Assembly: GCA_017537175.1 (NCBI GenBank)
Contig: JAFYLH010000010.1
Coordinates: 15,740-79,739, forward strand
Reading direction: 5' to 3'
Length of the DNA: 64,000 nt
DNA from: Clostridia bacterium
GTDB lineage: Bacteria > Bacillota > Clostridia > Oscillospirales > CAG-272
A model generated the notes under the pieces. It was given only the letters and a program-made list of their open reading frames with translations, was not told where the DNA came from and did not search any database. Every line of letters starts with the position of its first letter. Position 1 is the stretch's first letter. The translations under genes and the position numbers were made by a program. This document shows, piece by piece, positions 3,501-63,541 of this stretch.

Positions 3501-4243
3501 GCAGACTTCATCATAGCTGCGTTTCTGGTATAAATCATGATATCGGTGATCATATGCTGCTCAGCGATATATCTCATATCGTCTGTCATACCCCAAGAGG
3601 AATATGCACCGTAGAAATCACAGGGAGGAAGCATAGCCTCGTGGATAGGACCGCACCATCTTGCAAGTGCAGAACCTGCGATAAGAGCGTTACCGCCTCT
3701 GTTGTGGGGATCGGGATCATTAACACCGTCGCACCACATGGGGTCGGTAGGATCTGTAGTTCTGGGTCTGTTGCCGAAGTAAGCAAGAGCAGCCTCAGAA
3801 TAGTTTACGTGGGTAGCATCGGGATTGTTACGGATAAAAGCAGTCTCAGCGCAAGCGATAGCTGCGAAAGCCCAACAGTTACCGGAACGACCCTGGTCCT
3901 GCACCTCAGTAATAATGTTGGTGCCGGCAGCATTGGTTACGCCCAAGCTGTTATATTCTGCAGGGAAGCCTGCAACATCGTCGATGATAGTACCTGCCTC
4001 GGAAGCAGCAGCTTCACGGGGAGTCTGAACTCTGTTGCCGTCTTCGTCAATAACGATAGTGTCGGTGACGCCGTATTCAGAGGTAGCTGTAGTATCGGGT
4101 ACAACGGCCATAACTACTCGACCGTCGTCCACTACTGTTACCGCTTCGGCAGCACTCAGTGTCATAGGAACCATAGGCACAAGCATCATTGCGACCAACG
4201 CTAATGCCACGATTCTTTTTGCGGGTGTGAAAAAGTGTTTCAT
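563..4243 (-). CDS. Secreted multidomain papain-like (C1 family) cysteine peptidase with Listeria-Bacteroides-type repeats, a Cys-rich module and three C-terminal tandem repeats
   Basis: ORF 563..4324, with the start moved to ATG 4243 (AAGGAAGG RBS, then MKHFF...signal peptide...LSAAEA). Motifs are QGRSGNCWAFAA (catalytic Cys), NHAVYCVGW (His) and NSWDESWGNGGYFW, plus GWAFIGW-type repeat signatures. Three roughly 80-aa repeats each end in YNDG. Confidence 0.85.
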   Translation of the reverse strand: MKHFFTPAKRIVALALVAMMLVPMVPMTLSAAEAVTVVDDGRVVMAVVPDTTATSEYGVTDTIVIDEDGNRVQTPREAAASEAGTIIDDVAGFPAEYNSLGVTNAAGTNIITEVQDQGRSGNCWAFAAIACAETAFIRNNPDATHVNYSEAALAYFGNRPRTTDPTDPMWCDGVNDPDPHNRGGNALIAGSALARWCGPIHEAMLPPCDFYGAYSSWGMTDDMRYIAEQHMITDIMIYTRNAAMMKSAIQTFGGVYALYYHDHGMVKDIPGATTYYQNYQTGINHAVYCVGWNDNIPQSAFKTPPPGPGAWLMKNSWDESWGNGGGYFWLSYYDTSLYDAWIMDFEGIDNVDNNYQYDGAWGEGWYYFWFENGYERHTLKQANMFHAKGHEMLKQVGVWSYNEAATAHIEIYTNMTDPHNPDTGKLRATVSESFSGIGYRTIRLPEAVELLPGERFAVVVGMQTNCSDPSYGMYEYDPYAKALPGQSYVYDPEDGSWTMDTCNAYIKAFTEDVEVDTSALQELYDSALKYGFSPDDNMFMAQARDVLALEDPGKQRVTNAYKFLYSNFSGTVGVISFEPAIDGAEDIPEMIYASKGTYVTLPTNTPSFPGWAFIGWSENGFTNNGYYNPGQTIKLDHSMTLKGVWRKGDGDGAFTNGGGYYAVYYDPNGGAWDGENTNITKSESQYGLMTFATEFVFPKATATLDRKGYRLQTDKDDMTKVEFWSGNGQGRLTYNDPINNGYEYEIYEHLYKNSVFMVNTDRVPYGTNIFVNAAWDPIVTYDMNDGTGIKIQDFVYITDGNEYQILATADVTKYSSSSEFNPAKDNKNTLRANREGYNGLTVIPASDGKPVLYWNTRADGSGTNYDVGEIYEITEPVTLYAVYESDFSHVHNYVGKMTTMPTCEGNGIMTYTCSCGDSYEETVGVLGHAMGAWVVVKEATETEDGLRTSTCRRGCGLVVEEIIPAFGAPETGVTVSAEGPNLTVAGMVDVKDVFIALGDYNTYADVKANAVVRLTPDKLAGAESYTYTLKAGGYYTVLVRYNDGTQKFLYQQVDVTEPTFSANGLQLTVGNLADVKVIRTAYGEYTTVSQIKKAEGARAFTAKNDIKGADSYKIQYRYNGVVTVAVQYNDGYTKIYTYTVEQKVPTFVQSNNVVTIGNIDDLYIVRYAAGEWTTSSQIKKAPGSVALKASAAVDGVITVKNLKAGTYTFCVQYNDESYNYFVITVE

Positions 4244-7415: not shown

Positions 7416-8102
7416 ATGAAAAAGTTAATATTAATTATTTCAGCAACATTATTATGTATTTCTTTTACTGGATGCGAATCCTATTTTAAAACTTTAGAAG
7501 ATGTTAGTTCTGCATATCAAGAACAATTGGAGAAAGTTACAGGAAACGAAACAAATGATACAACATATGTAAAAAATGAGCAAACCCAAAGTGATACTTC
7601 AATAGAAAGTAACACACTCAAAGCCAACGAAGATACATTAAATACCAAAATAATGGATGATGGCTATATTAACGGAACAAATGCACAAAACATAGAATCT
7701 TCATTAAAAAGTATAGAAGAATATAATTGGTGGGAAGATCATACCCTTACACAATCAAGAATCAACAAAGAGTGGTCTGTTTACTGTGCAAACAATGAGA
7801 GTACTACTTATACGAAATCATATGATTTGAGTGCACATGACACATTGGAAATCGAAATTGCGGAATTCAGAACATATGATTATGATTACGATTATTTATT
7901 ATTATGTGCATCATTTTTCGATACTGATTTAATAGATGCAGAAGAAGTAAAAGAATGGATACGAGAATATGATAAGTCCAAAGGTACCGTCGAAAAAACA
8001 TTTGGAGATGCAGAATTCACTATGAGCTATACTGAATATGATGATGGTGAGTGTTATGTTGAGTTTTCAGTATGGGCTTGCGGAGATATCAACTCTAATT
8101 AA
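7416..8102 (+). CDS. Lipoprotein of unknown function in an AT-rich gene
   Basis: ORF 7353..8102. The likely start is ATG 7416 (or 7410), downstream of AAGGGGGAA. It has a signal peptide with lipobox ISFTGC. Composition is visibly AT-richer than the flanking genes. Confidence 0.7.
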   Translation: MKKLILIISATLLCISFTGCESYFKTLEDVSSAYQEQLEKVTGNETNDTTYVKNEQTQSDTSIESNTLKANEDTLNTKIMDDGYINGTNAQNIESSLKSIEEYNWWEDHTLTQSRINKEWSVYCANNESTTYTKSYDLSAHDTLEIEIAEFRTYDYDYDYLLLCASFFDTDLIDAEEVKEWIREYDKSKGTVEKTFGDAEFTMSYTEYDDGECYVEFSVWACGDINSN

Positions 8103-10786: not shown

Positions 10787-10828
10787 CGGAATGCAGAATG
10801 CAGAATTAAGAGTGCAGAATGAAGGAAG
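10787..10828 (-). repeat. Heptad array, 6 units (CGGAATG CAGAATG CAGAATT AAGAGTG CAGAATG AAGGAAG); reverse complement ATTCTGC type
   Basis: 7-bp periodicity; it ends in the GAAGGAA junction to the hairpin at 10828-10857. Confidence 0.9.
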
Positions 10829-10857
10829 AAAACTGTTGCAGTAATGCAACAGTTTTC
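10828..10857. repeat. Variant of the GAAAAC...GTTTTC hairpin (GAAAACTGTTGCA-gtaa-TGCAACAGTTTTC)
   Basis: 13-bp perfect stem sharing the GAAAAC/GTTTTC ends with the GAAAACCGC family. Confidence 0.8.
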
Positions 10858-10861
10858 GACC

Positions 10862-10903
10862 ATAACTATTCTCTATTCACTATTCACTATTCATTATTCA
10901 CTA
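10862..10903 (+). repeat. Heptad array, 6 units (ATAACTA TTCTCTA TTCACTA TTCACTA TTCATTA TTCACTA)
   Basis: 7-bp periodicity between the hairpin at 10828-10857 and the terminator at 10907-10935. Confidence 0.9.
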
Positions 10904-14677: not shown

Positions 14678-14699
14678 GAAAACCGCCAAAGCGGTTTTC
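14678..14699. repeat. GAAAACCGC-caaa-GCGGTTTTC hairpin (copy 1 of 5)
   Basis: Perfect 9-bp stem and 4-nt loop, located between argG and argH. Confidence 0.9.
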
Positions 14700-14738
14700 T
14701 TCCTTAATTCCTAACTCCTAACTCCTAATTTCTAATTT
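14700..14738 (+). repeat. Heptad array (TTCCTTA ATTCCTA ACTCCTA ACTCCTA ATTTCTA ATTT)
   Basis: 7-bp periodicity starting with the TTCCTTA junction directly after the hairpin. Confidence 0.9.
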
Positions 14739-14766
14739 AAAAAGCCATCGTTACCGATGGCTTTTA
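14739..14766 (-). terminator. Terminator-like hairpin immediately after argG
   Basis: AAAAGCCATCG-ttac-CGATGGCTTTT. On the minus strand it is followed by TTTTT. Confidence 0.7.
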
Positions 14767-24676: not shown

Positions 24677-24757
24677 GCGATATAAATCCCTTATGGGATT
24701 TGCGATATTCCCCAAGGGGAGCGATATATCCTTCGGATGCGATATGCCCTGTGGGGC
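24677..24757 (+). repeat. Array of 4 units, each GCGATAT plus a different short hairpin
   Basis: The four units are GCGATAT-AAATCCC-tta-TGGGATTT, GCGATAT-TCCCC-aa-GGGGA, GCGATAT-ATCC-ttcg-GAT and GCGATAT-GCCC-tgtg-GGGC. Confidence 0.85.
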
Positions 24758-24852
24758 GCGGGGGATTTATATCATATCGCGTTGAACGAAGTGAGACATA
24801 TCGCGTTTGTATAGCAAACATATCACATACGAACAAAGTGAGTATATATCGC
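24758..24852 (-). repeat. Inverted continuation: 4 units ending in ATATCGC/ATATCAC
   Basis: The units are ...CATATCGC (24773-24780), GTTGAACGAAGTGAGAC-ATATCGC, GTTTG-tatag-CAAAC-ATATCAC and ATACGAACAAAGTGAGTAT-ATATCGC. Units 2 and 4 share GAAC[GA]AAGTGAG. Confidence 0.7.
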
Positions 24853-24883
24853 AAAACACCCCGAGGTCTCTCGGGGTGTTTTA
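24853..24883 (-). terminator. Terminator of the small Cys-rich gene
   Basis: AAAACACCCCGAG-gtct-CTCGGGGTGTTTT directly after the stop at 24884. Confidence 0.8.
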
Positions 24884-25039
24884 TTATATAATCTGCTCTT
24901 CCTTTAGTTTTTCCAGCTGATCGGCAGGAATGTCTACATAAATACATTCTATACACTTGCCTTGAATGTCAAGTGATATACTATCCAATACACATTTATT
25001 TTTTCTGTTATATATACAGTATTCGTTTTCACAGTTCAT
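24884..25039 (-). CDS. Small (51 aa) Cys-rich protein, putative zinc-binding; function unknown
   Basis: ORF 24884..25069, with the start moved to ATG 25039, which sits behind a strong RBS (GGAGGTG). Cys residues are at positions 3, 8, 16, 29 and 32. A terminator lies directly after the stop, and the region is AT-rich. Confidence 0.65.
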   Translation of the reverse strand: MNCENEYCIYNRKNKCVLDSISLDIQGKCIECIYVDIPADQLEKLKEEQII

Positions 25040-25060
25040 AATAGCACCTCCTATCGTTAA

Positions 25061-25123
25061 TTGTAGCACATTTGTAATGCATTTGCAATGGTTATTTGTA
25101 GCACAATATGTATTACAATTGTA
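25061..25123. promoter_or_regulatory. Operator-like repeats in the divergent promoter region of the Cys-rich/RHH gene pair
   Basis: TTGTAGCACA occurs twice, 35 bp apart (25061-25070 and 25096-25105). There is a perfect palindrome TACAATTGTA at 25114-25123. Confidence 0.4.
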
Positions 25124-25149
25124 TCAACAGCGGTACTGTGGAGGTAAGT

Positions 25150-25323
25150 ATGAAAAAATTTAAAATTCCGTCAACTCCCCTAACGACAAACAAATCCATA
25201 AGATTTCCCAATGATATCATAGAAAAAGTTGAAAACGCAATACAAGGTAAGGAATGTACTTTTACCGCATTTGTAGTAGAAGCTGTGCGCGTTGCTTTAG
25301 AAAATTTAGAAGAAGAAGAATAG
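25150..25323 (+). CDS. Small (57 aa) ribbon-helix-helix (CopG/Arc/omega-like) DNA-binding protein
   Basis: The start at ATG 25150 follows a GGAGGTAAG RBS. KSIRFPNDIIEKVENAI (beta strand plus helix 1) and FTAFVVEAVRVALENLE (helix 2) fit the RHH fold. It is divergent from the Cys-rich gene. Confidence 0.65.
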   Translation: MKKFKIPSTPLTTNKSIRFPNDIIEKVENAIQGKECTFTAFVVEAVRVALENLEEEE

Positions 25324-25414
25324 TCGATATGCTTGCTTCGTAAGCTCGATATGTTCGTCTTACGACGAACTCGATATGTCCCTTACGGGACTCGATATGT
25401 TTTGCAAGCAAAAC
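25324..25414 (+). repeat. Array of 4 units, each TCGATAT plus a different hairpin
   Basis: The four units are TCGATAT-GCTTGC-ttc-GTAAGC, TCGATAT-GTTCGTC-ttac-GACGAAC, TCGATAT-GTCCC-ttac-GGGAC and TCGATAT-GTTTTGC-aa-GCAAAAC. Confidence 0.85.
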
Positions 25415-31495: not shown

Positions 31496-32701
31496 ATGAA
31501 TGTTTTGGTTGTAAATGCCGGAAGCTCTTCACTTAAGTATCAGCTTTTTGATACAGAGACCGGTAATGTAATGGCTAAGGGCCTTTGCGAGCGTATCGGT
31601 ATCGAAGGCAGTAAGATCGAGCACAAGCAGGCTGACGGTACAAAGACCGTTCGCGAGGTTGCAATGGAGAACCACTCTGTTGCTACAAAGATCCTTGTTG
31701 AGACCCTTACCGACGAAAAGATCGGCTGCATCAAGGATATGAGCGAGATCCAGGCTGTTGGTCACAGAATAGTCCACGGCGGTGCTTACTTCTCCGAGTC
31801 CACCCTTATCACCGACGGTGTTGTTGAAAAGCTTGAGCAGTGTATCGACCTTGCTCCTCTCCACACCAAGGCTCACCTTATGGGTATCAAGGGCTGTATG
31901 GATGCTATGCCCGGCGTTCCTCAGGTTCTGGTATTTGACACAGCATTCCATTCCACAATGCCCGAAAAGGCATATCACTATGCTATCCCCTACGAAATGT
32001 ACGAAAAGTACGATATCCGTCGTTACGGCTTCCACGGTACCTCCCACCGTTTTGTTTCCGGTGAGATGTGTAAGATCCTCGGAAAGGTAGAGGGTACAAA
32101 GATTGTAACCTGCCACATCGGTAACGGTTCCTCTATCGCTGCTGTTAAGGACGGCAAGGTTGTTGATACCTCTATGGGCTTTACTCCCCTTGCAGGTGTT
32201 GAGATGGGTACCCGTTGCGGCGATATGGACCCCGCAGTTGTTACCTTCATTATGAACAAGGAAGGCTTTACTCCCGACGAGATGAGCGACTTTATGAACA
32301 AGAAGTGCGGCTTCCTCGGCGTATCCGGTATCTCCTCTGACAGCCGTGACATCGAGGCTGCTATCCTTGAGGGCAACCACCGTGCAGAGCTTGCTGCAAA
32401 CATCCTTGCTTACCAGATCCAGAAGTACATCGGTTCCTACACCGCTGCTATGAACGGTCTTGATGCTATCGTATTCACCGCAGGTATGGGTGAGAACAAC
32501 ACCGAGCTTCGTGAAAGAGTTTGCCGTAATATGGAATACTTCGGCATCGAGATGGACTACGAGGTAAATGCTGCTGCTCACCACCAGTCCAACATCGTTA
32601 AGCTCTCTACAGACAACTCCAAGGTTGCCGTATACCTTATCCCCACAAACGAAGAGCTGGTTATTGCAAAGGATACAGAGAATATCGTAAGCGCACTTTA
32701 A
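31496..32701 (+). CDS. ackA: Acetate kinase
   Basis: The start at ATG 31496 follows a GGAGG RBS. It has the MNVLVVNAGSSSLKYQLF motif and GFHGTSH, with an extended -10 promoter at 31407-31435. Confidence 0.92.
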   Translation: MNVLVVNAGSSSLKYQLFDTETGNVMAKGLCERIGIEGSKIEHKQADGTKTVREVAMENHSVATKILVETLTDEKIGCIKDMSEIQAVGHRIVHGGAYFSESTLITDGVVEKLEQCIDLAPLHTKAHLMGIKGCMDAMPGVPQVLVFDTAFHSTMPEKAYHYAIPYEMYEKYDIRRYGFHGTSHRFVSGEMCKILGKVEGTKIVTCHIGNGSSIAAVKDGKVVDTSMGFTPLAGVEMGTRCGDMDPAVVTFIMNKEGFTPDEMSDFMNKKCGFLGVSGISSDSRDIEAAILEGNHRAELAANILAYQIQKYIGSYTAAMNGLDAIVFTAGMGENNTELRERVCRNMEYFGIEMDYEVNAAAHHQSNIVKLSTDNSKVAVYLIPTNEELVIAKDTENIVSAL

Positions 32702-32725
32702 TTTACGCTTGGCGTAAATTAATTC

Positions 32726-32778
32726 GGAATGCGGCCTGAGGCAAAGCCTCTTGGCACTCCCTCCGGTCGGAGTGCGGA
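32726..32778 (+). repeat. 53-nt repeat element M1, copy 1
   Basis: The sequence is GGAATGCGGCCTGAGGCAAAGCCTCTTGGCACTCCCTCCGGTCGGAGTGCGGA. It contains hairpins GAGGC-aaa-GCCTC and CTCC-ggtc-GGAG. Confidence 0.85.
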
Positions 32779-32781
32779 TCC

Positions 32782-32852
32782 ATGACACCCCGTATCTTTG
32801 ATACGGTTGGTGGAATTATGCAAGGAGTTTGCGGAACGCAAACTGTCGCAAT
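32782..32852 (+). ncRNA. 71-nt conserved structured element M2, copy 1 (candidate small structured RNA or ssDNA motif; strand not established)
   Basis: The sequence is ATGACACCCCGTATCTTTGATACGGTTGGTGGAATTATGCAAGGA-GTTTGCGgaaCGCAAAC-TGTCGCAAT. It is identical to the copy at 49759-49829 except for a 2-nt bulge and 3 compensatory pairs in the second hairpin. Confidence 0.5.
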
Positions 32853-32867
32853 GCGGAATTAAATGAA

Positions 32868-32889
32868 GAAAACCGCCGAAGCGGTTTTC
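32868..32889. repeat. GAAAACCGC-cgaa-GCGGTTTTC hairpin (copy 2 of 5)
   Basis: Perfect 9-bp stem, 15 nt after M2 copy 1. Confidence 0.9.
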
Positions 32890-32896
32890 GACCTCG

Positions 32897-32931
32897 ATTT
32901 TGCATTTTGAATTTTGCATTTTACATTCTTA
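32897..32931 (+). repeat. Heptad array (ATTTTGC ATTTTGA ATTTTGC ATTTTAC ATTCTTA)
   Basis: 7-bp periodicity, 7 nt after the hairpin. Confidence 0.85.
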
Positions 32932-33002
32932 CAACAGTTTACTTCATCGGCAAAGTCTTTTGGGGCTTTGCCGATTTTACCCTAAATTTCAGGAGACCCA
33001 TT

Positions 33003-36227: not shown

Positions 36228-36244
36228 ACTACGGTAATAAATTT

Positions 36245-36268
36245 GAATATTGGGATATGGTGTAACGG
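36245..36268 (+). repeat. Duplicated 5' fragment of tRNA-Gln (24-nt direct repeat of 36333-36356)
   Basis: GAATATTGGGATATGGTGTAACGG is identical at both positions. This upstream copy continues into unrelated hairpins GCGGTC-cac-GACCGC and GATAAC-cgaatgaa-GTTATC. Confidence 0.9.
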
Positions 36269-36338
36269 GCGGTCCACGACCGCAGGGATAACCGAATGAA
36301 GTTATCTTTGTTTAACAATTATTCCGCGAACCGAATAT

Positions 36339-36412
36339 TGGGATATGGTGTAACGGCAACACACAAGACTTTGACTCTTGCTTTGTAGGTTCGAGTCCTG
36401 CTATCCCAGCCA
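36339..36412 (+). tRNA. tRNA-Gln (anticodon UUG), CCA encoded
   Basis: Hand-folded cloverleaf. The acceptor is TGGGATA/TATCCCA and the D stem is GTGT/ACAC. The anticodon arm is CAAGA-CTTTGAC-TCTTG and the T arm is GTAGG-TTCGAGT-CCTGC, with discriminator G plus CCA. A consensus promoter lies roughly 110 nt upstream and a terminator follows directly. Confidence 0.9.
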
Positions 36413-36441
36413 ATAAAAAAGATGCTTCGGCATCTTTTTTT
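36413..36441 (+). terminator. Terminator directly after tRNA-Gln
   Basis: AAAAAAGATGC-ttcg-GCATCTTTTTTT. Confidence 0.85.
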
Positions 36442-36443
36442 AT

Positions 36444-36463
36444 TGGCAGCAGGGCTCGAACCT
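36444..36463 (-). repeat. Inverted fragment of the tRNA-Gln T-arm/acceptor 3' end
   Basis: The reverse complement, AGGTTCGAGCCCTGCTGCCA, aligns with tRNA 36387-36412 (AGGTTCGAGTCCTGCT...GCCA). Confidence 0.8.
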
Positions 36464-36559
36464 TGAGAAGGTCCGGGCGTTAAGAAAACAGTCCGGTGGA
36501 CTGTTTTTAGCACGGATGCGTGAGCCGTCAGGCGAGGGTGCGATACGCGAAGCGTATCT

Positions 36560-36575
36560 GTCCTGCTATCCCAGC
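36560..36575 (+). repeat. Duplicated 3' fragment of tRNA-Gln (16-nt direct repeat of 36395-36410)
   Basis: GTCCTGCTATCCCAGC is identical at both positions. This copy is followed by its own terminator-like hairpin. Confidence 0.9.
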
Positions 36576-36604
36576 AAAAAAAGCATCCTTCGGGATGCTT
36601 TTTC
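36574..36604. terminator. Second terminator-like hairpin after the duplicated tRNA 3' fragment
   Basis: AAAAAAAGCATCC-ttcg-GGATGCTTTTT. Confidence 0.7.
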
Positions 36605-47162: not shown

Positions 47163-47196
47163 ATCAACACCCTTACCAATTCTCAATTCTTAATTC

Positions 47197-48009
47197 TTAA
47201 TTCCTAATTAGTACTATCCCCACACCGTAGGCAATAAATATAATAAGCATCAGCCAGTCGGTAAATCTTGTTTTTAAAACTGTCATTCTGGTTCTGCCCT
47301 CGCCGCCGTTATAGCAACGGCACTCCATAGCTGTAGCAAGCTCACCCGCACGCATAAATGCGGAAACAAACAGCGGAATAAGTATGGGTATGAGAGCCTT
47401 GACTCTGCGGACGAGATTTCCCTCGGTAAAGTCTGCTCCTCTTGCCTTCTGGGCATTCATTATCTTGTCCGTTTCCTCTATGAGGGTGGGTATGAAGCGC
47501 AGAGCTATAGTCATCATCATTGCAAACTCGTGCACCGGGAGCTTTATCAGCTTAAGGGGAGCAAAGAGCCTTTCTATTCCGTCTGTCAGCGCAATGGGGG
47601 ATGTGGTGTAGGATACAAGCACATTTGTTCCCATTAAGAGACAGGCAAGCCGCAGAACCATCTTGCCTGCGTGCTCAAGTCCCTCGGTATATATCCTTAT
47701 CTTCCAGAAGGACCACAGGGGCTCATTGTCGCCCGAGGTCCAGAAGATATTGAGTATTGCGGTAAAAACTATGATAAGCATAACAGCCTTAAAGCCGCTT
47801 ATCACTATCCTTAAGGGAATACGGGAGAAGAGGATGATAAGCACGGCACCCATAACCATAACAAGGTATGACCACCAGCTGTCAGCCAAAAATACCGCGG
47901 CTATATAAAGAGCGGTAAGAACTATCTTCATACGGGGGTCTGTACGGTGAAAAACCGAGTTGCCCGGAAAATACTGACCTAATGTGATATCACGAAGCAC
48001 CGCCGTCAC
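47197..48009 (-). CDS. ecfT: Energy-coupling-factor transporter transmembrane subunit
   Basis: Polytopic protein carrying the ARG...R coupling-helix motifs. It sits downstream of two ECF ATPase genes and upstream of truA, which is the canonical Firmicute order. Confidence 0.85.
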   Translation of the reverse strand: MTAVLRDITLGQYFPGNSVFHRTDPRMKIVLTALYIAAVFLADSWWSYLVMVMGAVLIILFSRIPLRIVISGFKAVMLIIVFTAILNIFWTSGDNEPLWSFWKIRIYTEGLEHAGKMVLRLACLLMGTNVLVSYTTSPIALTDGIERLFAPLKLIKLPVHEFAMMMTIALRFIPTLIEETDKIMNAQKARGADFTEGNLVRRVKALIPILIPLFVSAFMRAGELATAMECRCYNGGEGRTRMTVLKTRFTDWLMLIIFIAYGVGIVLIRN

Positions 48010-49713: not shown

Positions 49714-49758
49714 TTTGTGTAAACGCTTTTACTATATCAAATTTGCAGTTAATGATCA

Positions 49759-49829
49759 ATGACACCCCGTATCTTTGATACGGCCGGTGGAATTATGCAA
49801 GGAACTTGCCAAAGGCAAGTTGTCGCAAT
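49759..49829 (+). ncRNA. 71-nt conserved structured element M2, copy 2
   Basis: The sequence is the same as copy 1 except the bulge is CC (versus TT) and the hairpin is ACTTGCC-aaa-GGCAAGT (versus GTTTGCG-gaa-CGCAAAC). It lies between the methyltransferase gene and ecfA1, which are both on the minus strand. Confidence 0.5.
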
Positions 49830-49846
49830 AATGAATAATTGAGGTC

Positions 49847-49868
49847 GAAAACCGCTTTGGCGGTTTTC
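49847..49868. repeat. GAAAACCGC-tttg-GCGGTTTTC hairpin (copy 3 of 5; the loop is the reverse complement of caaa)
   Basis: Perfect 9-bp stem, 17 nt after M2 copy 2. Confidence 0.9.
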
Positions 49869-49910
49869 TTCCTTAACTCCTCACTCCTAACTCATAACTC
49901 CTAACTATTT
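49869..49910 (+). repeat. Heptad array (TTCCTTA ACTCCTC ACTCCTA ACTCATA ACTCCTA ACTATTT)
   Basis: 7-bp periodicity; the last unit overlaps the stop codon of the methyltransferase gene. Confidence 0.9.
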
Positions 49911-52518: not shown

Positions 52519-52531
52519 AATTTACCTTTCC

Positions 52532-52566
52532 AATTCTCAATTCTCAATTCTCAATTCTCAATTAAA
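52532..52566 (+). repeat. Heptad array (AATTCTC x4 perfect, then AATTAAA)
   Basis: It lies 13 nt upstream of the ruvA start codon (minus-strand gene). Confidence 0.9.
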
Positions 52567-52599
52567 TGTGGATTTTTGTTCCCAAAAGGAACAAAAATC

Positions 52600-52627
52600 G
52601 TCCTTAATTCCGCACTCCGCACTCCGA
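52600..52627 (+). repeat. Heptad array (GTCCTTA ATTCCGC ACTCCGC ACTCCGA) merging into M1 copy 2
   Basis: It follows the hairpin GATTTTTGTTCC-caaaa-GGAACAAAAATC (52571-52599). Confidence 0.85.
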
Positions 52628-52668
52628 CCGGAGGAAGTGCCAAGAGGCTTTGCCTCAGGCCGCATTCC
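52616..52668 (-). repeat. 53-nt repeat element M1, copy 2 (inverted)
   Basis: Its reverse complement matches 32726-32778 at 52 of 53 positions. Confidence 0.9.
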
Positions 52669-52685
52669 GCATTATTTTTGCAACC

Positions 52686-53183
52686 CTAAAGGTTGTAAAA
52701 ATCCTTCAGCCTGCTTCCGCCTGTATGGGCATTGCATACCGCTATCGCCAGCGCATCCGCCGTATCGTCCGGCTTTGGGATCTTGGGTAATCCCAAAAGG
52801 GTGGTGACCATAGTCTGCACCTGCTGCTTTTCGGCTCTGCCGTAGCCAACCACCGCCTGCTTGACCTGCAGGGGAGTATATTCGTTTATACGGACATTGT
52901 TGTTGCGTGCCGCAAGAAGAATAACTCCTCTTGCCTCGGCAACCTGTATTGCGGTCTTTTGGTTAGAGTTGAAAAACAGCTCCTCTATTGCCATTTCCTC
53001 TGGGCGGTAGTTTTTTATGAGGGTGTTCATATCCGCATAAATAGTCGCCAGTCTGTCCTCGGGGGGAGTATGTGCGGGGGTGGTGATAGCGCCGTAGTCC
53101 AGCACATGGAATTTTCCCTTTGAGTAATCTATTAACCCGTAGCCCACTATGGCTATACCCGGGTCGATACCCAATATTATCAC
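52686..53183 (-). CDS. ruvC: Crossover junction endodeoxyribonuclease
   Basis: The start is moved to GTG 53183, 7 nt after GGAGGTGA. It has the ILGIDPG catalytic Asp motif and ADALAIA near the C-terminus. Confidence 0.88.
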   Translation of the reverse strand: MIILGIDPGIAIVGYGLIDYSKGKFHVLDYGAITTPAHTPPEDRLATIYADMNTLIKNYRPEEMAIEELFFNSNQKTAIQVAEARGVILLAARNNNVRINEYTPLQVKQAVVGYGRAEKQQVQTMVTTLLGLPKIPKPDDTADALAIAVCNAHTGGSRLKDFYNL

Positions 53184-57823: not shown

Positions 57824-59650
57824 ATGAAAAAGACAAGAATACTTATTGCTTTGATGCTCTGTGCAGCAGCGCTGTTTGTTCTGGCGTCCTGCGGCGGCGG
57901 TTCTACCAAAGCAACCATCGACCTTACCAAGGTTGATATGTCCCTTGAGGATGCTTGTGCCAAGGTTACCGAGGCAGGCTGTACTCCCGTTGTTGTAAGC
58001 GTTTACGACGAAAAGAACGAGGACGGCGCAGTTCTTTCTATCGGTGCGTTTAGCGCAAGTGACGAAAGCGGCTTTGTTACCGTTATCGTAAACGACCTTT
58101 CCATCAAGGAAACCGTTGAGGCTCAGCCTCTTGCTCCCCGTATGCTGACTAAGGACAGCTATGAGAAGAAGATCTTTTCCAAGATCTCCTCTGACGAGAG
58201 CCTTAAGAAGACCTTTGAATCCTTCTATACCTTAAAGGATGCAGATGCTGCCTCTGAGAGAGAAATTGAGGTAATGAACCGTTCCTACCCTGTTACAAAG
58301 ACTCAGGATATCTATGTTCTTGACACAGGTGTCAGCGCAAAGGAGATCGCTACCATTGCAGGCTACATCGCAGACATGACCGACTACAGCGCAACCGATA
58401 TGTTCAATGACTATGTTGCGGTAGGTATCGTTCCCACTCCCGAAGCAGGTCTTAAGGCTGAGGTTCTTTCCGCTGACAACTGTGAGTTTGAAGAGGTTGA
58501 CGGCGGTATCAAGATCACACTCTACAAGGGTGAGGGTCAGAACATCGTTGTTCCCGCAGAGATCGACGGCAAGGCTGTTGTATCTGTAGCTGACGGTGCT
58601 ATCCCCCAGTCCAATCTCCACGCATTTACCACAGTAAGCGGTCTTAAGTACATCGAGTCAGAGGCTTGCTCCAATGCATACGGTCTTTTGAATGTTACAC
58701 TTTCCGAAACAGTTATGGAGCTGGGTAAGGACGCATTTGAAAATGTTCTCTTTACCGAGACCGACGGCAGCTTTGTTACATTTGCAGATGATATCCTTCT
58801 CTCCTACACAGGCTCTGACGCAGAGGTTACAGTTCCCGACGGCATCAGATTTGTAGGTGCAGAGGCATTCCTCGAAAATGCTGCACTCACCAAGGTTACT
58901 CTTCCCGAGGGTGTTCAGTCCATCGGTACAGCAGCCTTCAAGCTCTGTGAAAATGTAACCGAGTACAATATCCCCTCCACCACTCTTAAGGTTTGTGACG
59001 AGGCATTCTACCGCATCAGACATGTCACCGTTCTTAACATTCCCGATTCTGTTATCGAGATCGGTAACTATGCATTCTATGAGAACAACGACATCGTTGA
59101 GTTCTCCCTGGGTCAGAATGTAAAGAAGATCGGCGACAACGCCTTTGAGTATCTCCACCTTGTAACAGCTCTTGATATTCCCGCATCTGTTGAGTATCTG
59201 GGCAACGGCGCTTTCCTTAAGTGTAAGGAGATCGCAACCGTTACAGGCGGTACAGGTCTTACATTTGTAGGCGCTGATGTGTTTGGCGAGGTTAAGTGGT
59301 TTGTTGATCTTGCAGAGGATTATAACTTCCTTGCAGACAGTATCCTTGTTAAGTGCAACTTAAACGAGCCCGAAATGACCGTTCCCGCAAAAACCAAGTG
59401 TATCTCCGGTGCGTTCAACGGTAAGAAGAAGCTTACCAAGCTGGTTATCAATGACGGCTGTACCACCATCGCAATGAACTCCTTTACCGACTGTGCTAAG
59501 CTTATCGATGTAGTTATCCCCGCATCTGTTACCTACATTGATGCAGGCGCATTTGAAAAGAGCAACAGCATCACATTCCATGTTGAGGCAGGCTCTGTAG
59601 CTGAGCAGTTCTGTAAGGACAATCATTATAAGTACGACAATAATATATAA
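57824..59650 (+). CDS. Surface lipoprotein with BspA-type leucine-rich repeats
   Basis: Signal peptide with lipobox LASCGG. It carries many roughly 23-aa repeats of the IP..V..IG..AF..C..L type. Confidence 0.8.
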   Translation: MKKTRILIALMLCAAALFVLASCGGGSTKATIDLTKVDMSLEDACAKVTEAGCTPVVVSVYDEKNEDGAVLSIGAFSASDESGFVTVIVNDLSIKETVEAQPLAPRMLTKDSYEKKIFSKISSDESLKKTFESFYTLKDADAASEREIEVMNRSYPVTKTQDIYVLDTGVSAKEIATIAGYIADMTDYSATDMFNDYVAVGIVPTPEAGLKAEVLSADNCEFEEVDGGIKITLYKGEGQNIVVPAEIDGKAVVSVADGAIPQSNLHAFTTVSGLKYIESEACSNAYGLLNVTLSETVMELGKDAFENVLFTETDGSFVTFADDILLSYTGSDAEVTVPDGIRFVGAEAFLENAALTKVTLPEGVQSIGTAAFKLCENVTEYNIPSTTLKVCDEAFYRIRHVTVLNIPDSVIEIGNYAFYENNDIVEFSLGQNVKKIGDNAFEYLHLVTALDIPASVEYLGNGAFLKCKEIATVTGGTGLTFVGADVFGEVKWFVDLAEDYNFLADSILVKCNLNEPEMTVPAKTKCISGAFNGKKKLTKLVINDGCTTIAMNSFTDCAKLIDVVIPASVTYIDAGAFEKSNSITFHVEAGSVAEQFCKDNHYKYDNNI

Positions 59651-59651
59651 A

Positions 59652-59680
59652 ATAAACGCCCGCAAGGGCGTTTATTTTAA
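59652..59680 (+). terminator. Terminator of the LRR lipoprotein gene
   Basis: AAACGCCC-gcaa-GGGCGTTT followed by ATTTTA. Confidence 0.8.
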
Positions 59681-59713
59681 TTCTCAATTCTTAATTCTCA
59701 ATTCGCAATTGAA
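59679..59713 (+). repeat. Heptad array (AATTCTC AATTCTT AATTCTC AATTCGC AATTGAA)
   Basis: It starts at the terminator T-run and ends in the GAAGGAA junction to the hairpin at 59718-59739. Confidence 0.9.
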
Positions 59714-59717
59714 GGAA

Positions 59718-59739
59718 GAAAACCGCCAAGGCGGTTTTC
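59718..59739. repeat. GAAAACCGC-caag-GCGGTTTTC hairpin (copy 4 of 5)
   Basis: Perfect 9-bp stem. Confidence 0.9.
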
Positions 59740-59746
59740 AACCACA

Positions 59747-59767
59747 ATTATTCATTATTCATTACAA
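59747..59767 (+). repeat. Short heptad array (ATTATTC ATTATTC ATTACAA)
   Basis: 7-bp periodicity over 3 units. Confidence 0.6.
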
Positions 59768-59802
59768 AAGCATCATAGGGAAAACTCCCTATGATGCTTT
59801 TG
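59766..59802 (-). terminator. Terminator of the 50-aa Cys/Gly-rich gene
   Basis: GCATCATAGGG-aaaact-CCCTATGATGC with A4/T4 flanks. Confidence 0.75.
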
Positions 59803-60058: not shown

Positions 60059-60093
60059 TTAGTTAGGAGTTAGGAGGGAGGAGTTAGGAGTTA
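60059..60093 (-). repeat. Heptad array (TTAGTTA GGAGTTA GGAGGGA GGAGTTA GGAGTTA); reverse complement of the TAACTCC type
   Basis: 7-bp periodicity. It is followed by GAAAACCGC hairpin copy 5 and is the inverted partner of 60236-60291. Confidence 0.9.
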
Positions 60094-60098
60094 TGGTT

Positions 60099-60120
60099 GA
60101 AAACCGCCAAAGCGGTTTTC
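60099..60120. repeat. GAAAACCGC-caaa-GCGGTTTTC hairpin (copy 5 of 5)
   Basis: Perfect 9-bp stem. Confidence 0.9.
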
Positions 60121-60235
60121 TTCTAATTAATCATATAATTAAGAAACAATTAATTATCAAATATTGCATTAATACAACATAACAAAAAAACAAATTATAT
60201 AATTAATCCGAAGCTTTTCGTATAAAACGAAAAGC

Positions 60236-60291
60236 TTCCTTAACTCCTAACTCCTAACTCCTAACTCCTAACTCCTAACTCCTAACTCCTA
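60236..60291 (+). repeat. Longest heptad array: TTCCTTA + (ACTCCTA) x6 perfect + ACTGTAT
   Basis: It follows the hairpin GAAGCTTTTCG-tataaaa-CGAAAAGCTTC (60210-60238) and ends 15 nt before the -35 box of the blaI-like promoter. Confidence 0.95.
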
Positions 60292-60305
60292 ACTGTATTC
60301 CCCTC

Positions 60306-63473: not shown

Positions 63474-63499
63474 GATATCCGTGCATCCGCACGGATATC
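63474..63499. repeat. 11-bp-stem hairpin preceding a heptad array
   Basis: GATATCCGTGC-atcc-GCACGGATATC, 8 nt after the blaR1-like stop. Confidence 0.8.
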
Positions 63500-63541
63500 T
63501 TCCTTAATTCTGCATTCTGCATTCTGCACTCTGCATTAAAA
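63500..63541 (+). repeat. Heptad array (TTCCTTA ATTCTGC ATTCTGC ATTCTGC ACTCTGC ATTAAAA)
   Basis: 7-bp periodicity starting with the TTCCTTA junction directly after the hairpin. Confidence 0.9.

Follow-up and report, generated by a model that had tools for sequence, protein, structure and literature searches.

A covarying two-hairpin cassette within intergenic heptad arrays of uncultured gut Clostridia

Background

The repetitive extragenic palindromic (REP) sequences and bacterial interspersed mosaic elements (BIMEs) of Enterobacteria are multicopy, polymorphic hairpin mosaics. They occupy intergenic regions, usually after stop codons and also between the genes of operons, where they are transcribed in 3' untranslated regions (3' UTRs) and bear on the stability of mRNA 3' ends. 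A single REP is an imperfect palindrome of ~35 nucleotides (nt) with a conserved GTAG and a cognate REP-associated tyrosine transposase (RAYT). Here we analyze an element that occurs twice, at 32782-32852 and 49759-49829, in a 64,000-nt stretch of DNA from a Clostridia bacterium (assembly GCA_017537175.1, contig JAFYLH010000010.1, positions 15,740 to 79,739), which we call the window. The best explanation for this element, termed the core below, is that it is a non-coding cassette of 72 nt belonging to a so far undescribed family of mosaic interspersed intergenic repeats, which is found in a narrow group of uncultured gut Clostridia. The repeat unit has four parts: arrays of 7-nt repeats (heptads) with the approximate form A-R-T-N-N-N-N, a junction of consensus AATTAWGGWW, a G+C-rich terminator-like hairpin, and optional hairpin cassettes, of which the core is one. 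The properties by which mosaic interspersed repeats are recognized are all found here, namely many copies, an intergenic location, a combinatorial use of modules (heptad types, hairpin families and cassettes) and insertion/deletion polymorphism with empty sites in relatives.

The core family resembles REP and BIME in being a multicopy, intergenic mosaic of hairpin units whose presence varies between genomes. It differs from them in that there is no sequence similarity, the heptad arrays converge on a hairpin, the core has two hairpins joined by an unpaired, conserved linker, and the regions examined revealed no RAYT. The BOX elements of Streptococcus pneumoniae have the arrangement boxA-boxB(n)-boxC, with modules of 45-59 nt and mutually complementary ends formed by boxA and boxC. 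Like BOX, the repeat described here is a modular, intergenic Firmicutes repeat with a tandem internal module of variable number and a predicted stable transcript structure, but its modules are 7 nt long, its symmetry is centered on a terminator and its sequence is unrelated. In the neisserial intergenic mosaic elements, RS units are found between dRS3 repeats, which are 20-bp inverted repeats used by phage integrases. Unique units of 50-150 nt also lie between intergenic copies of a short repeat in our case, but this short repeat is a direct heptad array.

Repeats with a period of 7 nt have also been described. The cyanobacterial STRR sequences are likewise intergenic direct repeats of heptamers, and HutP binds three UAG-N4 units, with the same period, beside a terminator. 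Many heptads in the window similarly place UAG, UAA or GAG beside a terminator at intervals of 7 nt (for example, at 60061-60093 and 498-514), in the manner of HutP or TRAP sites. This likeness is a lead only, concerns the arrays rather than the core, and does not extend to heptads such as AATGCGG that lack the triplet. A literature search on heptad repeats returned only a paper on the TAACTGA heptamers of Beggiatoaceae, Cyanobacteria and Bacteroidetes, which reports two to dozens of intergenic copies, states that their function is not known and proposes that they are sites for RNA-binding proteins (PMC4679880). The 7-nt period and the intergenic location are common to both systems; however, TAACTGA is a fixed heptamer found mostly just upstream of start codons, whereas the heptads analyzed here are locus specific, are directed at a hairpin and bear cassettes (PMC4679880). 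No searchable paper contains the sequence of the element. The combination of locus-specific heptads that converge on interchangeable hairpins with structured cassettes of fixed orientation is not described in the searchable literature.

Secondary structure of the core

The two copies of the element in the window are both on the + strand and have the ends ATGACACC...GTCGCAAT. A first-pass annotation, made from the sequence of the window, had reported them at these same coordinates as a candidate novel structured RNA. When the window is searched with a 23-mer and an 18-mer from the element, only these two sites are found, even at up to three mismatches, and 0 to 0.06 sites are expected in shuffled sequence. 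Similarity between the copies begins 4-5 nt before the element, with (G)ATCC or (G)ATCA from 32777/32778. The unit that is bounded by heptads is 72 nt long and extends over 32778-32849 in copy 1 (ATCC...GTCGC) and 49755-49826 in copy 2 (ATCA...GTCGC). AGTGCGG/AATGCGG heptads adjoin copy 1 on both sides.

The core folds into two hairpins. P1 (32786-32812 in copy 1) consists of CACC-CCGTATC, a TTT loop, and GATACGG followed by a two-nucleotide bulge and GGTG. It is joined by the conserved linker GAATTATGCAAGGA (32813-32826), which contains two GGA motifs if the G of P1 is included, to P2 (32826-32844), in which A-GTTTGCG pairs with CGCAAAC-T across a GAA loop. The conserved 3' tail GTCGCAAT follows at 32845-32852. 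The corresponding segments of copy 2 are P1 at 49763-49789, the linker at 49790-49803 and P2 at 49803-49821. Pairwise alignment of the 71-nt copies reproduces the differences on which the candidate RNA had been proposed. The P1 bulge is TT at 32807-8 and CC at 49784-5, and the second hairpin is GTTTGCGgaaCGCAAAC in copy 1 and ACTTGCCaaaGGCAAGT in copy 2, so that both partners of three pairs and a single base of the loop are altered. The copies are identical everywhere else.

Covariation across a wider set of homologues demonstrates that this secondary structure is under selection, as the first-pass annotation had proposed from two copies. In an alignment of 18 sequences, 97% of pair cells hold standard pairs, compared to 89% in shuffles and 29-36% when the partners are slid. 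Double compensatory changes occur in 9 of the 19 stem pairs (4 of 11 in P1 and 5 of 8 in P2), and none of 500 shuffles reaches the observed values. RNAalifold independently recovers both hairpins, which flank the conserved unpaired segments AUGA, GAAUUAUGCAAGGA and GUCGCA; the last two are constant across the copies. The core therefore combines compensated pairs with conserved unpaired nucleotides, as expected of structured non-coding RNAs in general. Single-sequence folds have similar stability on both strands.

RNAalifold adds two short elements to this core structure. The first is an extension of P1 over a tandem G-A step (GA 32784-5 with GA 32813-4) and two A-U pairs, and the second is a 3-bp helix around P2 that may form between UGC in the linker and GCA in the tail. 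The nucleotides of both elements are invariant, so these pairings are predicted only. A three-way junction closed by GACA and TGTC had also been suggested, but its C and A are already part of the outer P1 stem (CACC/GGTG), it is absent from the RNAalifold prediction, and the covariation backs P1.

The element matches no Rfam family, whether of self-cleaving ribozymes, riboswitches or small RNAs. A search of the whole window against Rfam 15 at the gathering score finds tRNA only, and a search of 32690-32960 at E <= 10 gives only terminator-like noise of 11-14 bits.

Copies in other genomes and a divergent homologue

A scan of species-representative genomes with an 18-mer from the linker yielded 52 loci, which contain 33 copies of the whole element. 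With the two window copies, the total is 35. The 33 copies are distributed among five gut metagenome-assembled genomes (MAGs): fecal_MAG_474 (12), RGIG1815 (8), SGB_1607 (6), RGIG1713 (5) and SGB_6839 (2). These MAGs are labelled Clostridia or Eubacteriales, and the ackA homologues are labelled Clostridia or Oscillospiraceae. Several copies are at contig ends, as expected because repeats break assemblies, and annotators of these MAGs can trace contig breaks to the element.

There are 14 distinct core sequences. Their P2 variants include ACTTACC/GGTAAGT and ACTTGC/GCAAGT, and in one P1 variant CCAAAT/ATTTGG replaces CCGTATC/GATACGG. The loops and the bulge are free to vary. A covariance model built from the 14 sequences detects no additional copies in the window or the scanned loci. 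Two covariance models, R1 and the rebuilt R2, were also run on ~0.9 Mb of fetched loci; R1 scores the window copies at 107 bits (copy 1) and 104 bits (copy 2). This search uncovered one divergent homologue in RGIG1713 (locus L192, 13110-13201), which scores 25.7 bits with R1 (E ~3e-5) and 46 bits with R2. Its outer P1 stem has TGCC/GGCA in place of CACC/GGTG, which amounts to two more compensatory pairs. The tip hairpin of P1 is longer, the sequence of P2 is replaced, and a terminator follows. The unpaired segments are retained as ..GTGA, GAACTTATGCAGGGA and GAGTCGCA, the last of which includes GTCGCA. The linker, GAATTATGCAAGGA in all 35 copies that were ascertained with it, is accordingly almost unchanged in a homologue that was found independently. 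A homologue search of this kind had been put forward as a check on the two-copy observation, and the further homologues retain the pairings by way of additional compensatory changes. A second weak covariance match in the same locus (3971-4046) is merely a terminator that resembles P1.

Other searches gave no further copies. Scans of viral contigs with a 15-mer and an 18-mer found matches in coding sequences only, blastn against plasmids and phages found no match, and a metagenome scan for copies in which P2 starts with a base other than G returned two chance matches.

Heptad arrays and terminator-like hairpins

The context that defines the core goes beyond the original two-copy description: the core is a cassette that lies within heptad arrays, and these belong to an intergenic repeat of mosaic, insertion-polymorphic character. 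Each copy sits in an array that has the same heptad type on both flanks (AATGCAG, AATGCGG, AATGCAA, AATTCGG, AATTGAG, AGTGAAT, AGTGAAG or AATAATG), and the core has the same orientation as the array. On its 3' side, one to three heptads lead to a junction near AATTAAGGAAG and then to a strong hairpin whose sequence is locus specific. A script located this hairpin 1-34 nt 3' of the core in 27 of 31 copies. Three more that are imperfect or have large loops were recognized by eye, which gives 30 of 31, and none is visible at L136. The scripted call is wrong at L138, where a nearer hairpin lies ~18 nt away. A run of T residues follows many of these hairpins.

At about two thirds of the loci, a co-directional gene ends 12-60 nt upstream of the core, and the array often begins at its stop codon. 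The genes upstream of sense-oriented copies include ackA and those for a DtxR-like regulator, a radical-SAM enzyme, a HAD hydrolase, an E1-beta subunit, a ThuA-like protein, MazF and an ABC-F protein. No functional theme was found among them. Since these genes are unrelated, the core is not a gene-specific regulator. We also rejected a cis-regulatory leader or riboswitch, as the core follows genes that are unrelated to each other and precedes a terminator.

The same architecture recurs throughout the window. All 16 of its period-7 arrays are intergenic, and for 14 of them a hairpin of 9 bp or more is close by. At sites such as 10789-10903, 14678-14760, 52531-52690 and 59640-59800, arrays approach a central G+C-rich hairpin from both sides. 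Further array sites are found at 371-514, 47178-47209, 60061-60294 and 63476-63537. Each has heptads of the ~ARTNNNN form followed by AATTAWGGWW, and the heptad sequence is specific to the locus.

Both modules that carry the core in the window can be described at this resolution. As first noted, ackA lies upstream of copy 1, two minus-strand genes surround copy 2, and each copy is followed by a hairpin and a heptad array; gene calls and sequence comparison agree with all of this. The hairpin GAAAACCGC-N4-GCGGTTTTC is 15 and 17 nt 3' of the two copies. The copy 1 module starts after the ackA stop codon (32702-32777, + strand) with the small hairpin TTTACGCttgGCGTAAA, the heptads AATTCGG and AATGCGG, and a second cassette (insert B, 32735-32775). 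The core is then followed by a heptad and junction (AATGCGG AATTAAATGAA, 32850-32867, + strand), the central terminator-like hairpin GAAAACCGCcgaaGCGGTTTTC (32868-32889, + strand), and an opposite arm (32890-32930, - strand) whose AATGTAA, AATGCAA and AATTCAA heptads are directed at this hairpin. An SLH-domain gene lies downstream. The copy 2 module (49714-49904) is 191 nt long and lies between a SAM-methyltransferase gene and ecfA. Its core is followed at 49827-49868 (+ strand) by the heptads AATAATG and AATAATT, the junction GAGGTC and the hairpin GAAAACCGCtttgGCGGTTTTC (49847-49868). The opposite arm (49869-49904, - strand) reads AGTTAGG AGTTATG AGTTAGG AGTGAGG AGTTAAGGAAG and starts at the stop codon of the methyltransferase gene.

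Insertion polymorphism and sequence constraint

Orthologous loci, which we fetched by means of their flanking proteins, differ in which parts of the module they contain. On the 3' side of ackA, L174 (ackA 95% identical) and L177/L178 (90%) run from the stop codon straight to the ancestral terminator. The modules of L175 (RGIG1713) and L190 comprise a small hairpin, AATGCAG heptads, the junction and a hairpin, but the core is missing. In the window the order is heptads, insert B, the core, heptads, the hairpin and a reverse arm. At the site of copy 2, the methyltransferase gene and ecfA overlap (TAATG, TGATG) in the two closest relatives, from which the module is missing; its 191 nt in the window comprise two arms on either side of the hairpin, the second of which bears the core, plus 41 unique nt. 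Between ruvC and ruvA, a relative has 10 nt and the window ~155 nt more. Because these genes overlap or are only 10 nt apart in the relative, the modules must have been inserted into tight operon junctions. The empty and filled sites among relatives likewise establish insertion/deletion polymorphism of the modules and of the core as parts of a mosaic repeat. Two species carry the core on opposite arms of the same orthologous intergenic region (L143 and L165).

Several orthologous modules differ in other ways. The module at 59620 retains its architecture in the orthologue, where all heptad and hairpin sequences are different. The modules at 60061 and 60241 have the same heptads in different copy numbers, and heptad number also differs between the orthologues L124 and L144, as slippage would give. 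The modules at 49714-49904 and 52519-52690 occupy the methyltransferase/ecfA and ruvC/ruvA junctions that are tight in GCA_054285205.1. At 47178-47209, a palindromic AATT joins two heptad arms directly, with no central hairpin between them; L191 (reverse complement, ~7420-7500) has a 39-nt hairpin cassette at exactly this point, and this is the only difference.

Orthologous cores are far better conserved than their surroundings. L122 and L171 agree at 75/75 positions of the core, at 273/300 upstream coding positions and at 108/162 downstream positions. The corresponding values for L168 and L158, the latter of which is a decaying copy, are 70/76, 231/313 and 93/173. This conservation could reflect either purifying selection or homogenization among copies. 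The same heptad on both sides of every copy might be a target duplication, but the array is itself periodic, and the only repeat at whole-module junctions is a 6-nt CAAAAT.

A tRNA-Gln gene in the window (36339-36409, within 36230-36600) is accompanied by partial duplicates. An 18-nt duplicate of its 5' end and a 70-nt insert lie upstream, and a terminator and then a 16-nt duplicate of its 3' end lie downstream. In RGIG1713 (L192, 13060-13340), the divergent core homologue is found between a tRNA terminator and a duplicate of the tRNA-Gln 3' end. These end duplicates may be a trace of site-specific integration. The position of the divergent copy suggests, without establishing, a tRNA-related origin of the core.

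Possible roles of the core

We favor a role for the core at the level of RNA, a proposal for which we consider the balance to be even. The orientation of the terminators and the arrays that adjoin stop codons favor the + strand as the transcribed one in most loci. We infer that the core is carried at most loci into the 3' UTR of the upstream gene, in a transcript that would end at the intrinsic terminator. The two hairpins could then display the conserved purine-rich linker and the tail to a trans-acting factor that would bind them. Alternatively, the core may merely add stable 3' structure that affects the 3'-end stability or processing of the transcript that carries it, as is known or proposed for REP/BIME and BOX.

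Several observations weigh against an RNA-level role. The wobble pairs do not discriminate between strands, with four G-U pairs on the + strand and three A-C combinations that would be G-U on the minus strand, mostly in two decayed copies. At about a quarter of the loci (window copy 2, L151, L134/L166 and L165), the arm with the core lies between the hairpin and the start of an opposite-strand gene, and no + strand promoter-like site was detected at these loci. A consensus scan also finds no promoter inside the core; the only strong (perfect) promoter at L134 is outside the core and points away from it, and L151 has no room for one. In most copies the stems are identical across species while the neighboring terminators drift, and such identity could arise by recent copying, by gene conversion or through sequence-specific recognition just as well as by selection on the RNA. 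The orthologous copy L158 is in decay. Finally, part of the invariance of the linker in the 35 copies stems from its use as the query, which is why its retention in the divergent homologue matters. Of the "novel structured RNA" that was first proposed, the novel structured element stands. An RNA gene does not follow from it, since there is no conserved promoter, the wobble counts pick no strand and about a quarter of the loci lack an upstream co-directional gene. As a caution, covarying repeats should not be called riboswitches or small-RNA genes from two copies alone.

It is possible, if distinctly less probable, that the core acts as DNA, either as a miniature mobile cassette or as a recombination or protein-binding site. 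Its hairpins would form in DNA that is single-stranded or cruciform, where a transposase or recombinase would recognize them and insert the core into heptad arrays in one orientation; transcription would be incidental. This would explain why the core is present or absent within homologous arrays and whole modules are present or absent at tight gene junctions, why L143 and L165 have the core on opposite arms, and why near-identical copies occupy non-orthologous sites in five MAGs. Core orientation follows the array and hairpin rather than gene direction, the identical flanking heptads would look like a 7-bp target duplication, the P2 subtype is loosely correlated with heptad type, and the divergent copy adjoins a duplicated stretch of 18 nt from the 3' end of tRNA-Gln, an arrangement like that at the att sites of integrases. 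However, the target duplication is inseparable from the periodic array, whole-module junctions show no repeat beyond the 6-nt CAAAAT noted above, and orthologous copies are inherited stably, with greater conservation than their coding flanks. No transposase or integrase was seen, with the gene calls of a syntenic relative that cover ~21-61 kb of the window containing housekeeping genes only, and the phage and plasmid collections hold no match. The known classes of such elements also fit poorly. A miniature inverted-repeat transposable element (MITE) was rejected since there are no terminal inverted repeats beyond the 4-nt GACA/TGTC, the ends ATCCATGA and CTGTCGC not being inverted repeats of each other. 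An element derived from insertion sequences of the IS200/IS605 type (PATE) or a REP-RAYT pair was rejected since P1 and P2 are unrelated, the left flanks vary (GCAG, GCGG, AGTG, AATG, TGAG, GCAA) with no fixed tetranucleotide, and GTAG is absent. An integron attC site was rejected since there are no R''/R' core sites (RYYYAAC ... GTTRRRY) and the context is one of housekeeping genes. The first-pass annotation had itself named a known MITE with randomly varying hairpins as the outcome that would count against it; the repeat found here comes close to a MITE-like one, but it belongs to no known family and the variation of its hairpins is not random.

That the core belongs to a family of trans-acting small RNAs, whether stand-alone or derived from 3' UTRs, seems to us improbable. 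The linker would serve as a seed for mRNA targets or as a decoy for an RNA-binding protein such as CsrA. The layout of a structured 5' part, a conserved single-stranded stretch and an intrinsic terminator is shared with many small RNAs, and the unpaired nucleotides are retained even in the divergent homologue. There are also two GGA motifs 10 nt apart and an AAGGAAG in the junction, and the suggested link to CsrA is one of motif resemblance. But no promoter is conserved, upstream sequences are unrelated between copies, and many loci have only 12-45 nt between the stop codon and the core. The window contains no site complementary to the linker at up to three mismatches, and dozens of near-identical copies would be unusual for a seed-type small RNA. 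Explanations by coding or by chance are effectively excluded. An open reading frame (ORF) that begins at ATGACACC and would give MTPRIFDTVGGIMQGVCGTQTVAMRN and a stop stays open for 26-27 codons in both window copies, from the ATG to a stop in the downstream heptads, yet a small protein gene is the least credible of the readings considered. The substitutions are paired changes in stems rather than synonymous ones, intact copies have non-triplet indels (-1 in L125 and +1 in L158), the number of 7-nt units 3' of the core shifts the frame and the stop, and copy 2 has no ribosome-binding site. Scarcely more probable is a neutral repeat with hairpins that vary by chance. Membership in a repeat family and the decay of the L158 copy would be in keeping with it, but the excess of standard pairs over shuffled and slid alignments, the nine compensated pairs and the greater conservation of the core than of its coding flanks are not.

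A more far-reaching proposal, which we consider unlikely, is that the core represents a new class of functional RNA domain. The islands could in that case form a genome-wide post-transcriptional system in which the heptads are sites for a multimeric RNA-binding protein beside terminators, like those of HutP or TRAP, and the orientation-fixed cassettes recruit factors or act as decoys. Under the same heading, the islands might instead be a foldback-like mobile element of a new kind, with heptad-repeat arms. The significance of the repeats would be greater if the heptad/hairpin islands were a regulatory or mobile system of their own. If the explanation of the core as a cassette of a mosaic intergenic repeat is correct, then a lineage of uncultured ruminant and faecal gut Clostridia has gene ends assembled from a modular kit that comprises heptad arrays, terminator hairpins that can replace one another, and structured cassettes. 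Such a kit could be inserted even between overlapping operon genes, and it would be a new example of interspersed repeats that reshape transcription units. The core itself would add a domain of 72 nt, covarying and well conserved, with a putative binding partner.

Other features of the window

The stem GAAAACCGC-N4-GCGGTTTTC is present in five window copies, which start at 14678, 32868, 49847, 59718 and 60099 and carry either CAAA or the complementary TTTG as their loop. Further families of hairpins (GATTTTTGTCC.., GATATCCGTGC.. and GCCTTTCGG..) recur at unrelated MAG loci.

Insert B (CCTGAGGCAAAGCCTCTTGGCACTCCCTCCGGTCGGAGTGC) is a 41-nt cassette with two hairpins that is unrelated to the core. 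It occurs at 32735-32775 (+ strand) and 52619-52659 (- strand) with one mismatch between the copies, in both cases inside AATGCGG/AGTGCGG heptads, and it was not found in the other fetched loci.

A promoter-like sequence (TTGATC-17-TGnTATAGT) is located at 49731-49759 on the minus strand, and its -35 element coincides with the left edge of core copy 2. It is restricted to this locus and is not a general feature of the repeat. This site could drive ecfA downstream of the inserted terminator.

A segment of ~626 nt at 24746-25372 is missing from the relative. It contains CGATAT-type short repeats with hairpins and a small ORF, whose putative product resembles in appearance a ribbon-helix-helix protein.

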